DNA of 64,000 nt, taken from Chitinispirillaceae bacterium. GTDB taxonomy: Bacteria > Fibrobacterota > Chitinivibrionia > Chitinivibrionales > Chitinispirillaceae. The notes below the pieces were generated by a model, which had not been told where the DNA came from, made no database searches, and was given only the letters and a program-made list of their open reading frames with translations. How positions within the stretch are numbered: position 1 is the stretch's first letter; every line of letters starts with the position of its first letter. A program made the translations under genes and the position numbers. Shown here in pieces: positions 26,819 to 32,771 of this stretch. Location: contig JBKHHW010000001.1 of assembly GCA_046538945.1 (NCBI GenBank), positions 17,765 to 81,764 on the forward strand, in the 5' to 3' direction.

Positions 26819-27742
26819 ATGAGCGCTTCTAAAAAAGATCTGCTGACACTGCTCGAGTTTTCTCCTGACGAACTACGCAACATCATTTCGCTTGCCGCGG
26901 AACTGAAAGCCAAAAGGTATTCATATCCCTACCGCACTTTCGAACAGAAATCCGGGGTGCTTATCTTTGAAAAACCCTCCCTGCGCACCAGGATCACCTT
27001 TGAAACAGCCATAAATGAACTGGGCGGACATGCCATCAATCTGGCCAGCGCAGCGGTGGGGATGGGAAAACGGGAAAGTGTGGAGGATGTTGCACGGAAC
27101 CTTGAACGGGTGGTACACCTGATCGTGGCACGCACTTTCGAACACGACACGGTCGTGCAGCTGGCCAGGTTTAGTTCCATACCCGTCATTAACGCTCTTA
27201 CAGACTCGTTTCACCCCTGCCAAGCACTGGCTTTCGCTCTCACGGTTCACGAGAACCGGCCTGGCCATAAACCGAACATTGTCTTCATCGGTGACGGAAA
27301 CAACGTCTGCAACTCCATCATGGTGATTTGTGCTAAACTCGGCTATTCCTTCACAGTCGTGGGCCCCAGGGGTTACGAACCGCATCAGGAAATGGTACGT
27401 AGCTGCATGGAAATCTGCAAGCAAACCGGAGGCTCGCTCACGATTACTAATGATTTGTTCCCGGCTGTGGAAAAAGCCGAAATACTCTACACCGACGTCT
27501 GGACGAGCATGGGGCAGGAAGAAGAATCAGAAAAACGCATAAAGGACTTCCGATCATACCAGGTCAATACCGAACTGGTACGGAAAGCCCCCAAGGATGT
27601 TCTGGTTTCACACTGTCTTCCGGCACACCGGGACGAGGAAATCACTAGCGAAGTTCTCGATTCACCACATTCAGTGGCTTTCGATGAAGCGGAAAACAGG
27701 CTTCATGTTCAGAAAGCTGCAATCGTGCACCTTTTTTCCTAA
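26819..27742 (+). CDS. argF: Ornithine carbamoyltransferase
   Basis: 307 aa with FEKPSLRTR, HPCQALA, DVWTSMGQEEE and HCLPAHR. Confidence 0.9.
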   Translation: MSASKKDLLTLLEFSPDELRNIISLAAELKAKRYSYPYRTFEQKSGVLIFEKPSLRTRITFETAINELGGHAINLASAAVGMGKRESVEDVARNLERVVHLIVARTFEHDTVVQLARFSSIPVINALTDSFHPCQALAFALTVHENRPGHKPNIVFIGDGNNVCNSIMVICAKLGYSFTVVGPRGYEPHQEMVRSCMEICKQTGGSLTITNDLFPAVEKAEILYTDVWTSMGQEEESEKRIKDFRSYQVNTELVRKAPKDVLVSHCLPAHRDEEITSEVLDSPHSVAFDEAENRLHVQKAAIVHLFS

Positions 27743-27758
27743 CACAGGCGAAAAATCT

Positions 27759-28529
27759 ATGGCTGAAAAACGCGTTTCATTCGGGATAAAGGCACTTGAT
27801 AAAATGTGCTGCGGCGGTCTGCTCAGGGGCTCTGCAAACCTTTTCGAAGGTGCCCCGGGGACCGGCAAAACGACCATGGCAATGCAGTACATCTTCAACG
27901 GCATCACCATGTACGGCGAGCCGGGCCTAATCATCACTTTCGAGGAATTCCCACAGCAGTATTACCATGATGCACTGCAGTTCGGGTGGGATTTCAAGAA
28001 ACTTGAAGCCGAAGGAAAGCTCAAGGTCATCTTTTCCGATCCCGAAACCGCCTTGTCCGAATTCGACAAAATGGACGGAGAATTCGTCTCCATCGTCGAG
28101 GAACTTGGTGTTAAACGGGTGGTGGTAGATTCCATGACCCACTTCGAATCGCTTACCCTGGACAATCATGAACTGAGGGATATAGAGAGGCGATTTATCA
28201 ACGCGCTGAAAAGAGAAGGCGTCACCAGTATTCTTCTCAGAGAAAACGACAGTCTTCTGGGCCAGGTCTCTCATATCACCAGTAAAATTCCTTTTATCGT
28301 TGACACTTATGTGCTTTTACGATATGTTGAAATAGACAGTGCCATAGAAAAGGCGCTCTGTTTTCTTAAAATGAGGGGAAGTGATCATCAGAAAGATATC
28401 CGCTGTTTCAGAATTACCTCTAAGGGAATCGAAGTTGAAGCGAAATTCAGCGGCAAGGAAGGTATAATGAGCGGTATCACACATTCCACTCCCCAAGATG
28501 CTTTTGTTGATGCATTCGGAAAGAAATAA
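27759..28529 (+). CDS. Single-domain KaiC-like (RecA-superfamily) ATPase
   Basis: The ATG at 27759 gives MAEKRVSFGIKALDKMCCGGLLRGSANLFEGAPGTGKTTMAMQY. It has a Walker A (GAPGTGKT), ITFEE (catalytic Glu position) and a Walker B (KRVVVDSMTHF). It is about 256 aa, one KaiC/RadA-type domain. The ORF-track start at 27597 overlaps argF and is rejected. Confidence 0.8.
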   Translation: MAEKRVSFGIKALDKMCCGGLLRGSANLFEGAPGTGKTTMAMQYIFNGITMYGEPGLIITFEEFPQQYYHDALQFGWDFKKLEAEGKLKVIFSDPETALSEFDKMDGEFVSIVEELGVKRVVVDSMTHFESLTLDNHELRDIERRFINALKREGVTSILLRENDSLLGQVSHITSKIPFIVDTYVLLRYVEIDSAIEKALCFLKMRGSDHQKDIRCFRITSKGIEVEAKFSGKEGIMSGITHSTPQDAFVDAFGKK

Positions 28530-28534
28530 GTGTT

Positions 28535-28831
28535 ATGGAAGTTCCGTCAACTGCAGACATACTGCTAATTGCCGGATATGTGATGTTCTGCATGGGTCTG
28601 AACGTGATAGCGTTTCTGATCTCTTCGTTTTACAAGAAGAAACTCAAGCAGCCCTCTCCGACTCTGGGTTTTCTTCTTGCTCTTCTGTTTGGAGCAGTGT
28701 TTATCGGTTCGCTTATAATGAGAGATTTTCATTCTCAGAGTCTCCAGGCTATTTCCCTTCTGGGCTACAGCATGAGTTCTACATTGAGTATAGTGGGGTT
28801 GTATCTGTCCATGAGAAAAACCAGGAAGTGA
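28535..28831 (+). CDS. Small 3-TM membrane protein (98 aa)
   Basis: Three hydrophobic helices: ILLIAGYVMFCMGLNVIAFLISSF, LGFLLALLFGAVFIGSLI and ISLLGYSMSSTLSIVGLYLSM. It starts 5 nt after the KaiC-like stop. Confidence 0.55.
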   Translation: MEVPSTADILLIAGYVMFCMGLNVIAFLISSFYKKKLKQPSPTLGFLLALLFGAVFIGSLIMRDFHSQSLQAISLLGYSMSSTLSIVGLYLSMRKTRK

Positions 28832-28832
28832 T

Positions 28833-29132
28833 ATGATTTACGAACAGACACTTTTCTTTTTTGATGTATCTGCAGTTTCGCTGATGCTTGTGCTTGCATA
28901 TCTCAGCAAGCGCCTGGGAGATGCACTGCAGATCAAACCCTATTACCGAATCCTTTTTTTCACTTCGGCTGCGATAGTGGGAGCTTCCGGCATAGACACA
29001 ATACCGTCGTCTTTGAGTTTCACTCTGACTGCGATCCTGACCAATTTCATCAGATTCGCAGCTTCACTCACAGCTCTTGTCGTCGTGCTGCGCTACTGGA
29101 AATGGCTCTTTGCTGAATTTTCCAAAACTTAA
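28833..29132 (+). CDS. Small 3-TM membrane protein (99 aa), likely paralog of the preceding one
   Basis: Three helices: FFFDVSAVSLMLVLAYLS, YYRILFFTSAAIVGASGI and LTAILTNFIRFAASLTALVVVL. It starts 1 nt after the previous stop. It shares the same TM1-basic-(Q/I)KP-TM2 layout. Confidence 0.55.
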   Translation: MIYEQTLFFFDVSAVSLMLVLAYLSKRLGDALQIKPYYRILFFTSAAIVGASGIDTIPSSLSFTLTAILTNFIRFAASLTALVVVLRYWKWLFAEFSKT

Positions 29133-29146
29133 GGTCTGCGGAAACT

Positions 29147-29524
29147 ATGAGCAAAAAGATTCTTGTAATTGAAGATGACAGCGATATTGCGGATCTGGTG
29201 AAACTAGTTCTGGAAACGGATCAGTTCGAAGTCAGAACGGTTCTGGATTCCCTCCAGGCCTACGAGGAAGCCAAGGTCTACAGGCCCGATGCCATTCTTC
29301 TCGACCTTTCGATGCCTGGAATGGATGGATGGGCTGTATTCAGACTCCTGCGCAGCGACGATTCATTCCAAAACGTACCCATTGCCATTTTGACCGCCAA
29401 ATCTCAGCAGTTTGATCAGATGGTCGGACTTCACATCATGAATGCTGATGCTTATATCACTAAACCGTTCGGAAAGCAAGAACTGATCGACAAAACCTAT
29501 GAGCTCTTCAAAAGAAAAGAATAA
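29147..29524 (+). CDS. Stand-alone response-regulator receiver (CheY-like)
   Basis: 125 aa with ILVIEDDSD, DAILLDLSMPGMDG (phospho-Asp), ILTAKS and YITKPF. It has no output domain. Confidence 0.85.
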   Translation: MSKKILVIEDDSDIADLVKLVLETDQFEVRTVLDSLQAYEEAKVYRPDAILLDLSMPGMDGWAVFRLLRSDDSFQNVPIAILTAKSQQFDQMVGLHIMNADAYITKPFGKQELIDKTYELFKRKE

Positions 29525-29933
29525 ACGTATACTTGTTGTTGACGACGAGGTGGATGTCCTTGACTTTCTCAAGATCTATCTTGAGTCTCTGGGCTGGGAA
29601 GTGACCACGGTGATGTCCACCGCCAAGGCTTTCGAAGAACTGGACAACAAACCCTACTTTCTCGTGCTGACTGACATCGCCATGCCTGACATGGACGGCT
29701 ACGAATTCATCAGCAAAATCAAGGAGAAATCCTACCCCAGCCAGATGGCACTGATGACCGGTTTCGGCTACAACCCCAAACACACTCTGGTCAAAATCTA
29801 CAAGACGATACGCTATCCCTGCCTTTTCAAACCGTTCAACAGGGCAAAGGTGGCCGAAGCGGTTCAGAATGCATACAATGCCTATCATGAAAACATTCTG
29901 CAATCTGAATCAAGCCAGGAACCTCAAGACTGA
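29499..29933 (+). CDS. Stand-alone response-regulator receiver (CheY-like), second copy
   Basis: 144 aa with ILVVDDEVD, LVLTDIAMPDMDG, ALMTGFG and LFKPF. It overlaps the previous receiver by 26 nt. It has no output domain. Confidence 0.85.
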   Translation: MSSSKEKNKRILVVDDEVDVLDFLKIYLESLGWEVTTVMSTAKAFEELDNKPYFLVLTDIAMPDMDGYEFISKIKEKSYPSQMALMTGFGYNPKHTLVKIYKTIRYPCLFKPFNRAKVAEAVQNAYNAYHENILQSESSQEPQD

Positions 29934-29936
29934 CAA

Positions 29937-32771
29937 ATGCGCGACATAACCATTAAAGGTGCACGCGTTCACAATCTCAAGAACATCGATGTAACCATAC
30001 CCCGCAACAGTTTCACCGTGATAACGGGCCTTTCCGGTTCCGGGAAGTCCTCTCTAGCTTTCGATACGCTATACTCCGAAAGCCAGCGGCGCTATGTCGA
30101 ATCGCTCTCCTCCTACGCCCGGCAGTTTCTGGGTCTGATGGAAAAGCCCGATGTGGACCAGATAGAGGGACTCTCTCCCGCAATATCAATCGAGCAGAAA
30201 ACAACCGGTCATAACCCCCGCTCGACCGTGGGCACCATTACCGAAATCCATGACTACCTGCGCCTTCTTTTTTCCAGAATCGGAACTCCCACCTGCTACA
30301 ACTGCGGCAGAATAATCGCCCGCCAGACAGTTCAGGAGATTACCGACAGAATTCTCACCCTGGAACCCGGGACCAAATTCCAGATCCTTGCCCCGGTCAT
30401 AAAGGAACGCAAAGGCGCGCACAAGGACCTCCTCTCCAAGCTTCAGAAGGATGGATATGTAAGAGTACGGGTTGACGGAACGGTTTACACACTGGATGAG
30501 GATGTTCCAATTGATCCGGATACAAAACACACGATCGAAGTCGTGGTCGACAGACTGATAGCCGGCAGGAACATAGCATCAAGGCTTACCGAATCCATTG
30601 AAACATCGCTCAAGCTGAACAGTGACGGAACGCTGATTGCAGATATTATTGACGGCGAAGACATTCTCTTTTCGCAAAGACTTGCGTGTCCGGTCTGCGG
30701 CATAAGCTATGATGAGCTGAGCCCGCGCATGTTTTCCTTCAACAGCCCCTTCGGAGCCTGCGAGGAATGCCACGGACTGGGCTTTCTTATGGAAATAGAT
30801 CCTGAACTTGTGGTACCGAATCCCTCACTCTCCCTCAAAGAGGGAGCAATTGTCCCCTGGAACGGAGCCAATACGGAGGGGGGATGGAACAATCAGATTC
30901 TGCTGTCTGTCAGCAAACATTTCAAAATTCCCATGGACAAACCGTTCCGTTCCCTCACTGCTAGACAGAAGAAAATTCTTCTTAACGGATCAGGAAAAGA
31001 ACGCATATCGATTCAGTACGAAACCAAAAGCGGCTCCGGAAAAGGAGAATTCAGACGTACCTTCGAAGGAGTTATCCCCAATCTGCTCAGACGTTACAGA
31101 GACACCACCTCGGAGGACATACGGCGATGGATAGAGGGGTTTATGACCCAGAAGCGCTGCCCCACCTGCGGAGGCACTCGGTATAAAAAGCAGAGTCTGG
31201 CCATTTTGATAAACGGCAGCAGCATCGCCGACGTCTCTGAATACTCTATAGAAAAATCTCTCGATTTTTTCAGAAACTACCGACCGGAGGGGGTAAACGG
31301 AAAGATCGCCCGCCCCATCCTGCGTGAAGTAATCCAGCGTCTCACGTTTCTTTACGATGTGGGTCTGGGTTACCTAAGTCTTGACCGTACTTCCTCCACG
31401 CTCTCGGGAGGAGAGGCTCAGCGTATCCGCCTGGCCACACAGATAGGGTCTAGGCTTACAGGGGTACTGTACATTCTTGACGAACCCAGTATCGGTCTTC
31501 ACCCGCGGGACAACAGCCGGCTGCTCTCGACTCTTATTGCCCTGAGAGATCTGGAAAACACGGTCATAGTGATCGAACATGACAAGGAAACCATCATGGC
31601 CGCGGATCATCTGATCGACATCGGTCCCGGAGCAGGCATCCACGGGGGAGAACTGGTGGCCCAGGGGAAACCATCGCAGGTTGCCGCGTCGGCCGATTCA
31701 CTCACCGGACTGTATCTGTCAGGAAAGAGAAATATTCCCCTTCCCAGAAAACGCAGAAACGGCAGCGGTTCCTTCATTACAGTCAGAAAAGCATCGGGAC
31801 ACAATCTCAAAAACGTCGATGTGTCTTTTCCGTTAGGAAAACTGGTATGCGTGACGGGGGTGTCCGGCTCGGGGAAAAGCTCACTGGTAAACCATACCCT
31901 TTATCCGGCTCTGGCCAGATCCCTTTACCGTTCAAGAAGAGATTCCCTCCCGTATGAAAAAATCGACGGGCTGAATCAACTCGACAAGGTGATTGATATC
32001 GACCAGTCCCCTATCGGCAAAACGCCCAGATCCAACCCCGCGACATACACCAAGGTTTTCGATCCGATAAGAAACCTCTTCGCCATGCTCCCCGAGAGCA
32101 AGATAAGAGGCTATACTCCCGGCCGTTTCAGCTTCAACGTTAAAGGCGGCAGGTGTGAAACCTGCCAGGGCGACGGTGAGCTCAGAATAGAAATGCATTT
32201 TCTTCCCGACGTGTACGTTCAGTGCGAAACGTGCCACGGGAAAAGGTACAACCGGGAGACGCTGGAAATTCTATACAAAGGAAAGTCCATCGCGGATGTG
32301 CTTGAAATGACAATCGATGAGGCATTGGTCTTCTTTGATAAGTTGTCCGCAATAAAGCAGAAACTCATGGTGCTGTCCCAGGTGGGACTGGGCTACATCC
32401 GTTTAGGTCAACCGGCAAACACTCTTTCCGGAGGCGAAGCGCAGCGGATCAAGCTCGCCTCCGAACTTTCCAAGCGAGCTACGGGCAAAACACTCTACAT
32501 CCTTGATGAACCCACGACAGGACTTCACTTCGAGGATATCCTCATGCTCATGAATGTCATCCAGGAACTGGTCGACAAAGGTAATTCAGTGATAGTGATC
32601 GAACACAACCTGGATGTGATCAAATGCGCTGACTACATAATTGACCTGGGGCCCGAAGGTGGCGACAAGGGCGGCACCGTTATTTCCCAGGGAACTCCGG
32701 AGCAGATAGCAGCCGACCCGACCTCCATTACGGGACAGTACCTCAAAAAAGAACTACAGATCACAGAATAA
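29937..32771 (+). CDS. uvrA: Excinuclease ABC subunit A
   Basis: 944 aa with two ABC modules ([12 protein letters not shown]; [11 protein letters not shown]), zinc-finger Cys clusters and LSGGEAQRI twice. It starts 3 nt after the receiver stop. Confidence 0.97.

Follow-up and report, generated by a model that had tools for sequence, protein, structure and literature searches.

A single-domain KaiC-like ATPase and two predicted membrane miniproteins form a conserved gene core with lineage-specific two-component neighbours

Results

The five-gene cluster and its surroundings

We analysed a stretch of 64,000 nucleotides (nt) from a Chitinispirillaceae bacterium (contig JBKHHW010000001.1, positions 17,765 to 81,764 of the forward strand; called the window for simplicity), in which five tightly packed open reading frames (ORFs) on the + strand at 27759-29933 encode a single-domain KaiC-like ATPase, two miniproteins (mp1 and mp2), each with three predicted transmembrane segments (3-TM), and two stand-alone receiver proteins (REC1 and REC2). 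From the first gene to the fourth, neighbours are 5, 1 and 14 nt apart, and the last two overlap by 26 nt. These five ORFs had been described, with their coordinates and spacing, in an earlier interpretation made from the letters alone (the sequence-only reading), and were found to be exact on re-checking. The genes and their immediate flanks are as follows.

27759-28529, + strand: ATPase, 256 amino acids (aa), single-domain KaiC-family protein of the RecA superfamily (Pfam PF06745)
28535-28831, + strand: mp1, 98 aa, predicted 3-TM protein (hydropathy and charge)
28833-29132, + strand: mp2, 99 aa, predicted 3-TM protein (hydropathy and AlphaFold model)
29147-29524, + strand: REC1, 125-aa stand-alone receiver (Pfam PF00072)
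29499-29933, + strand: REC2, 144-aa stand-alone receiver (PF00072), its start overlapping the end of REC1 by 26 nt
26819-27742, + strand: argF, ornithine carbamoyltransferase (NCBIfam NF001986, 382.6 bits against a cut-off of 306)
29937-32771, + strand: uvrA, starting 3 nt past the REC2 stop

Only 16 nt separate the end of argF from the start of the ATPase gene. The wider surroundings, assigned by synteny with annotated related loci, are housekeeping genes (ribosomal proteins S6, S18, L9 and L25, Pth, SpoVG, adk and NAD synthase), the G+C content of the locus is unremarkable, and by these two measures there is no sign of a mobile island around the cluster. A scan for promoters and terminators returned signals that were not enriched over shuffled sequence, and none above background bounds a unit. 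Among the PADLOC defence models, the ATPase, mp1 and mp2 had no match and the receivers had only generic receiver-domain matches; an anti-phage defence system was rejected on the grounds that the core is without a PADLOC match and the locus is syntenic amid housekeeping genes.

Conservation in Fibrobacterota and Chloroflexota

Related loci (denoted by L numbers) were retrieved by a genome scan with one genome per species, and their ORFs were searched with the proteins of the window. Each collection scan kept the best 80 of more than 530 relatives, and the phyletic range given here is a lower bound. All 36 Chitinispirillia loci (L001-L036) show the order argF-ATPase-mp1-mp2-REC1, with REC2 and then uvrA following wherever the contig is long enough, except in L031, which is without REC2. 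The five-gene order is not a matter of chance: with this one exception every Chitinispirillia locus of sufficient length has it. About ten deeper Fibrobacterota loci, labelled 'Fibrobacteria' and carrying ATPases 49-60% identical to that of the window, have argF-ATPase-mp1-mp2-REC1 with a single receiver, and about 40 loci from Anaerolineae (Chloroflexota; ATPases 53-60% identical) keep ATPase-mp1-mp2 and have no receiver. The genes are closely spaced in all groups (median gaps of -4 to 33 nt). Orthologues of REC1 follow mp2 in all Fibrobacterota lineages examined (L001-L036, L039-L053, L078, L082 and L107), and REC1 is a phylum-level addition in Fibrobacterota; REC2 was seen solely in Chitinispirillia; L031 is without it, as are the 'Fibrobacteria' loci.

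Since ATPase-mp1-mp2 is retained without receivers in Anaerolineae, the conserved unit consists of the ATPase, mp1 and mp2 in two phyla, and the two-component proteins are lineage-specific partners. The sequence-only reading had proposed a five-gene module and had left the conservation of its order to be checked; the cluster is real and tightly coupled and its order holds across the class, while the part conserved across two phyla comprises the first three genes only.

Averaged over the 36 Chitinispirillia loci, identity to the window is 79% for the ATPase, 74% for REC1, 73% for UvrA, 68% for REC2, 65% for ArgF, 50% for mp2 and 44% for mp1. The ATPase is thus the best-conserved gene of the cluster, above UvrA and ArgF, and its being more conserved than UvrA within the class argues for an important role in these chitin- and cellulose-degrading Fibrobacterota.

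As a separate observation, argF on the 5' side and uvrA on the 3' side are kept beside the module in L001-L036, L039-L053, L082 and L107, despite ATPases at 49-60% identity, and the arrangement argF-ATPase-mp1-mp2-REC(s)-uvrA resembles one long operon across Fibrobacterota.

The ATPase is a KaiC-family protein without the clock phosphosites

The Pfam KaiC/ATPase profile PF06745 matches residues 7-228 of the 256-aa ATPase with an E-value of 3.4e-51 (174.3 bits against a cut-off of 26.6). Across 82 homologues the Walker A motif G31-T38 (GAPGTGKT), the catalytic Glu pair E62/E63 (TFEEFP), the Walker B residue D124 (VVVDS) and the residues K204, R206 and H210 in the Arg finger region (LKMRGSDH) are invariant or nearly so, which bears out the earlier description of a single KaiC-type domain of about 256 aa with intact Walker A, Walker B and FEE glutamate. 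The C-terminal tail, 'TPQDAFVDAFGKK' in the window, is conserved as well and takes the form '..DAFVxxFGKK' or '..FxEAF' in the family. The closest homologues, 77-91% identical, belong to Chitinispirillum alkaliphilum and to metagenome-assembled genomes (MAGs) of Chitinispirillales and Chitinivibrionales (Fibrobacterota).

Over its whole length the ATPase can be aligned with the CI and with the CII half of KaiC (PDB 8zn5; 120 and 128 bits, respectively). In this alignment the KaiC segment H-I-S431-T432-I-T-D-T lies opposite K-I-P178-F179-I-V-D-T of the ATPase, and both phosphosites are gone. The pair equivalent to S431/T432 is P-F in Fibrobacterota and A/S/G-F in Chloroflexota, no Ser or Thr being conserved there across the family. 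A KaiC-style autokinase timer is therefore unsupported, and the premise of the sequence-only reading that the protein works like the KaiC autokinase is weak.

More narrowly defined families were tried and rejected. The two models of clock KaiC gave 136.6 bits against a cut-off of 546 (TIGR02655) and 170.4 against 408 (NF006799), the ATPase having one domain rather than two in tandem (about 500 aa); those of ArlH/FlaH gave 33.4 bits against 215 and 38.4 against 194, and neither the window nor the related loci encode ArlI or ArlJ. The best single-domain NCBIfam model was the archaeal KaiC_arch_3 (132 bits, under the cut-off of 249), and no archaeal KaiC model gave a score that reached its cut-off. 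RadA/Sms was likewise rejected (TIGR00416, 26.4 bits against 403): the match is confined to residues 3-127, the P-loop region, and no other part of RadA was matched. A grouping with RadA/Sms, which the earlier reading had raised against itself, is thus not what was found; by PF06745, the matches to KaiC in the PDB and the low RadA score, the ATPase groups with KaiC.

These comparisons bear on the idea that the ATPase could be a RadA- or RadB-like recombination or repair accessory co-expressed with uvrA. KaiC and RadA share the RecA fold, weak RadA and RadB matches were obtained, and in many Fibrobacterota loci, as in the window, uvrA overlaps the last receiver gene or sits no more than 3 nt away. 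The poor RadA score and its restriction to the P-loop region, together with the absence of the uvrA link in Chloroflexota and in the Aquicultorales loci described below, make such a role extremely improbable, and it would leave the membrane proteins and the receivers unexplained.

The miniproteins are predicted to present conserved basic segments to the cytoplasm

Family-averaged hydropathy revealed three hydrophobic stretches in mp1 and in mp2, and in both proteins loop 1 and the C-terminus carry positive net charge, a charge distribution that suggests an N-out/C-in topology. The AlphaFold model of mp2 contains three helices at modest confidence (predicted local distance difference test score, pLDDT, of 72), and a Foldseek comparison of this model with the PDB found no structural neighbour (every E>1). 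The earlier assignment of both miniproteins as 3-TM proteins is therefore supported as a prediction, by hydropathy in both and by the model in mp2.

Recognisable homologues of mp1 and mp2 were aligned from both Fibrobacterota and Chloroflexota, and in each protein the best-conserved regions are the positively charged segments predicted to be cytoplasmic. In mp1 this is a motif after the first transmembrane segment (TM1) with the consensus ARFYxxK (SSFYKKK in the window), accompanied by a basic C-terminus; in mp2 it is the conserved loop 1 motif LSxRLGxxxKxxPxYR after TM1 and the C-terminal RYWxWL, in which W89 and W91 are invariant in the two-phylum alignment. From the gene linkage and these conserved, predicted-cytoplasmic motifs we infer that the ATPase may be tethered to the membrane.

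No Pfam or NCBIfam family was matched by mp1 or mp2. A candidate assignment of mp1 as a 7TMR-DISM fragment was rejected (7TMR-DISM_7TM, E-value 0.0073, 16.7 bits, under the cut-off of 29; no match for mp2), and the match probably reflects helix composition. Database relatives of mp2 number 357, and the 120 of them that were listed are all unnamed and without a Pfam domain. Compared with each other as possible paralogues, mp1 and mp2 reached an hhalign probability of 27%.

The receivers are intact and no histidine kinase is encoded in the window

Both receivers match the Pfam profile Response_reg PF00072 above its cut-off of 30.2 bits (REC1: 1.4e-24, 86.8 bits; REC2: 1.4e-19, 70.7 bits). The acidic pocket, the phospho-acceptor Asp and the conserved Thr and Lys are all retained (D10/D11, D53, T83 and K106 in REC1; D15/D16, D59, T87 and K111 in REC2), and neither protein has an output or second domain, so that the matches and residues agree with the sequence-only reading on this point. 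A profile built from 16 HisKA+HATPase_c cores found no histidine kinase in the 64-kilobase window at E<=10, and a receiver profile found no receivers there beyond REC1 and REC2. A weak phmmer check, with only an approximate KaiB query, gave no KaiB-like ORF in the window, and no neighbouring gene is KaiB-like. That no histidine kinase accompanies the cluster, as had been claimed, is thus correct for this locus; for the system as a whole it is not, as relatives in Anaerolineae have a kinase next door (see below). Given such relatives, the receivers are most simply taken to be phosphorylated by a kinase whose gene lies elsewhere.

Taken to its strongest form, the earlier proposal would be a phosphorelay free of kinases, with the KaiC-like ATPase in the place of the histidine kinase, either donating phosphate to the receivers or acting as their gatekeeper. 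The kinase-free window and the complete set of phospho-acceptor residues in both receivers would fit such a scheme, and a preprint (bioRxiv 10.1101/2021.03.19.436134) states that KaiC-family proteins including ArlH can autophosphorylate. The Pro-Phe pair at the S431/T432 positions and the lack of any family-wide Ser or Thr there speak against it, as does the classical kinase that adjoins the same core in relatives. Moreover, neither phospho-Ser/Thr nor ATP bound to a RecA fold is known to pass phosphate to a receiver Asp, and orphan receivers served by distant kinases are common. We consider this relay very unlikely.

Regulators and signalling proteins accompany the core in other lineages

In Anaerolineae the typical order is secA, a protein of about 125 aa, ATPase-mp1-mp2 and then a kinase or an adenosine deaminase. 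The kinase, present after mp2 in about 19 loci, has 770-1500 aa with four to six GAF domains, sometimes PAS domains in addition, and HisKA plus HATPase_c; its gene often overlaps mp2 by a few bases. The deaminase (TIGR01430, 296 bits) directly follows mp2 in about eight loci and elsewhere comes after the kinase. The protein of about 125 aa is encoded 5' of the ATPase in essentially every Anaerolineae locus, often abutting its start, and is a small winged-helix protein according to a PDB profile search (3r0a, E-value 0.001, followed by matches to the MarR/ArsR families); Pfam HVO_A0114 matches 8 of 10 members of this family, which otherwise fits no curated family, and no counterpart was found in the window. 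Positions of these features in representative loci are given below.

L044:7500-11984, L045:7447-10797, L047:7434-10676 and L065:7588-10773: soluble multi-GAF histidine kinases, with no receiver encoded nearby
L068:7575-8663, L080:7406-8488 and others: adenosine deaminase
L044:2163-5276: secA upstream of the Anaerolineae module
L044:5393-5770, L045:5532-5909, L080:5618-5995 and about 40 other Anaerolineae loci, as well as L083:6504-6872 and L163:7520-7900: winged-helix protein of about 125 aa
L163:6001-10660, L164:510-3363, L083 and L084: Aquicultorales loci

A metagenome scan with distant single-domain ATPases as queries retrieved the last of these, a third clade from Ca. Aquicultor/Aquicultorales (Actinomycetota by source labels) whose ATPase is 45% identical to that of the window. 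One locus encodes the ATPase, a 103-aa and an approximately 130-aa 3-TM protein, a winged-helix-like protein of 126 aa, a protein of 238 aa, an extracytoplasmic function (ECF) sigma factor and a zf-HC2 anti-sigma factor; another encodes a MarR-like protein, the ATPase, proteins of 102, 97 and 126 aa and an ECF sigma factor. An hhalign probability of 97% marks the two Aquicultorales miniproteins as clear paralogues.

It was also observed that the winged-helix protein of about 125 aa accompanies both single- and double-domain KaiC-like ATPases, in Chloroflexota, in Aquicultorales and on other metagenomic contigs.

Domain fusions of related ATPases involve a similar range of partners: MerR helix-turn-helix (HTH) + KaiC (P0197), KaiC + PAS (P0241), two KaiC domains + HisKA-HATPase_c (P0201), two KaiC domains + a periplasmic solute-binding domain (P0126) and KaiC + MEDS (P0138). 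The link to two-component signalling made in the sequence-only reading is thus supported by the receivers in Fibrobacterota, the multi-GAF kinase in Anaerolineae and the fusions to HisKA-HATPase_c, PAS and MerR. In both phyla the gene after mp2 codes for a two-component protein, which is a receiver in Fibrobacterota and a kinase in about 19 Anaerolineae loci.

It may be asked whether these genes share a function at all, since the receivers could belong to an unrelated pathway and merely ride with the ATPase and miniprotein genes in a housekeeping super-operon running from argF to uvrA. The positions of argF and uvrA are kept just as well across Fibrobacterota, so genes can hold their order here without working together; the Chloroflexota version does without receivers, and the promoter and terminator scan delimits no unit. 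Against such a coincidence, REC1 stays at mp2 (median gap 2-12 nt) where the ATPases fall to 49% identity, the corresponding place in an independent phylum is taken by the complementary two-component half, and the ATPase family is fused to kinase, PAS and HTH domains. A mere neighbourhood is therefore, in our estimation, improbable.

A second question is whether the core performs a non-signalling job at the membrane, such as envelope maintenance, export or the assembly of a surface structure, with the ATPase working on a platform as ArlH/ArlI does on ArlJ and with the receivers, kinase and winged-helix protein merely regulating it. Hexameric RecA-type ATPases on membrane platforms are common and single-domain receivers typically act by effector binding; in addition, the ATPase is conserved like a housekeeping gene, the cluster lies amid argF, uvrA, adk and ribosomal protein genes, and among the named single-domain relatives in NCBIfam ArlH comes closest. 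In the loci of the three phyla, no cargo, pilin, archaellin, filament, secretin or transporter gene is recurrently linked, the recurrent companions of this ATPase clade in related loci being regulators and signalling proteins only. An obvious channel would call for larger proteins with longer loops than mp1 and mp2, and the ArlH score of 33 bits against 215 and the missing ArlI and ArlJ count against the comparison with the archaellum motor. We regard an effector machine of this kind as unlikely.

Discussion

A candidate membrane-docked signalling core

We favour the interpretation, to which we give an even chance, that a KaiC-like ATPase ring docked at the membrane may be a signalling core in communication with two-component proteins, and that the receivers would obtain their phosphate from a kinase whose gene lies elsewhere. 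In the mechanism we propose, mp1 and mp2, both N-out/C-in and with almost no external loops, would together form a membrane platform, and the mp1 motif 'ARFYxxK' and the mp2 motifs 'LSxRLG..K..PxYR' and 'RYWxWL' would hold in place a single-domain KaiC-type ATPase that is catalytically active and assembled as a hexamer. A cue from the membrane or the cell interior, together with ATP turnover, would determine the nucleotide or assembly state of this ring, and Ser/Thr autophosphorylation of the KaiC type would play no part. Protein-protein contact would couple the state of the ring to lineage-specific regulators. In the window these partners would be REC1 and REC2, which keep all phospho-acceptor residues next to an ATPase without the KaiC phosphosites and are therefore probably phosphorylated by a histidine kinase encoded elsewhere, for which the multi-GAF kinase of Anaerolineae may serve as a picture. 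Depending on their phosphorylation, they would bind the ATPase complex, much as the Pseudomonas putida KaiC homologue does with its neighbouring kinase and response regulator. The sequences establish which genes are present, their order and tight coupling, the domain identities, the intact catalytic and phospho-acceptor residues and the conservation across phyla. Complex formation, topology, signalling role and direction of information flow are what we infer from these comparisons, and the receivers could be either the input to the ring or its output.

Several points weigh against this interpretation. Neither phylum has both halves of a two-component system in the cluster, which makes the wiring of kinase to receiver and the direction of the signal guesses, and the tiny external loops of mp1 and mp2 offer no obvious sensing surface. 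The adenosine deaminase that takes the place of the kinase in some Anaerolineae loci indicates that the kinase link is frequent and not obligatory. Between the Aquicultorales miniproteins and mp1 or mp2, hhalign detected no homology (probability <1%), and the parallel with the module of the window is therefore architectural only. Finally, the gene models of the related loci come from simple ORF chaining, which is unreliable in high-GC contigs, and their taxon labels are the titles of MAG records.

A more radical version would make ATPase-mp1-mp2 an unrecognised membrane-embedded transducer that replaces the sensor histidine kinase. The hydrolysis state of its ring would control the receivers by non-canonical phosphorylation or by capture and release, and elsewhere a soluble kinase, the winged-helix regulator or an ECF sigma pathway. 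To us this version appears decidedly improbable.

Relation to known systems

Cyanobacterial KaiC, with its SasA/CikA-RpaA output, shares with the ATPase of the window the PF06745 family, the Glu pair, the Walker motifs, the Arg finger and a link to two-component proteins. It differs in having two domains instead of one of 256 aa and in its S431/T432 phosphosites, which are absent in the window, where no KaiA or KaiB was found; unlike cyanobacterial KaiC, the ATPase also has small membrane-protein partners that are obligatory as judged by gene linkage. The KaiC homologues of Pseudomonas putida and P. protegens are encoded beside two-component proteins, as is the ATPase of the window, and physically bind the neighbouring histidine kinase and response regulator (bioRxiv 10.1101/2022.01.26.477890). 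They are the best functional precedent for a contact between ATPase and receiver or between ATPase and kinase, although they are two-domain, phosphorylated and soluble proteins for which no membrane miniproteins are reported, whereas the lineages described here carry half a two-component pair.

Archaeal single-domain KaiC proteins (structures of PH0284, PH0186 and SSO2452) resemble the ATPase in having one domain of about 250 aa. Fusions of KaiC to REC and KaiC signalling hubs are described in archaea in PMC5847659, which cites Makarova, Galperin & Koonin 2017, and both these hubs and the relatives of the ATPase are associated or fused with REC, winged-helix, PAS and MEDS domains; the module described here is bacterial (Fibrobacterota and Chloroflexota) and has two 3-TM miniproteins as constant companions, a pairing for which we found no description. 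ArlH (FlaH), part of the archaellum motor, is a single-domain KaiC-like ATP-binding protein, as expected of the ATPase, and acts together with a partner ATPase at the ArlJ membrane platform. Archaellum clusters are also known from Chloroflexota (PMC12488501); no module locus has ArlI, ArlJ or archaellin genes. With RadA/Sms and RadB the ATPase shares the P-loop core of the RecA superfamily, and uvrA adjoins the module in Fibrobacterota.

One survey lists single-domain KaiC homologues in 'a few Bacteria', without the clock phosphosites or KaiB and with no function assigned (PMC5520375). Nowhere in the literature searched did we find a bacterial single-domain KaiC ATPase described together with dedicated membrane miniproteins and receivers, overlap with the archaeal survey of Makarova et al. 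2017 being possible, and the Chitinispirillum alkaliphilum genome paper does not mention these genes. The module extends known KaiC-like signalling hubs and the coupling of KaiC to two-component proteins and is not categorically new. It provides bacterial single-domain KaiC homologues with a conserved set of partners, namely two miniproteins and interchangeable regulators (receivers, GAF kinase, winged-helix protein and possibly an ECF sigma pair), and gives two unannotated families of small proteins a testable function. If the ring does couple a membrane platform to two-component proteins, the concept of KaiC as a signalling hub would extend from archaea and clocks to bacteria, and two-component signalling would gain a new input or adaptor layer.

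Additional observations

Other KaiC-like genes in the related loci have neighbours of their own. An 8-TM protein of 284 aa is encoded directly after another single-domain KaiC-like ATPase (L108:783-1637), and an ATPase that appears MinD/ParA/CooC-like by eye lies upstream of a KaiC-like gene in two loci (L100:25-408 and L104:2439-3293). Elsewhere in the window, at 40819-43587, a 782-aa ORF is followed after 7 nt by a 137-aa ORF that looks FHA-like by eye ('GAVSIGRSSKNTIVLP'), and the two could be a small signalling pair.

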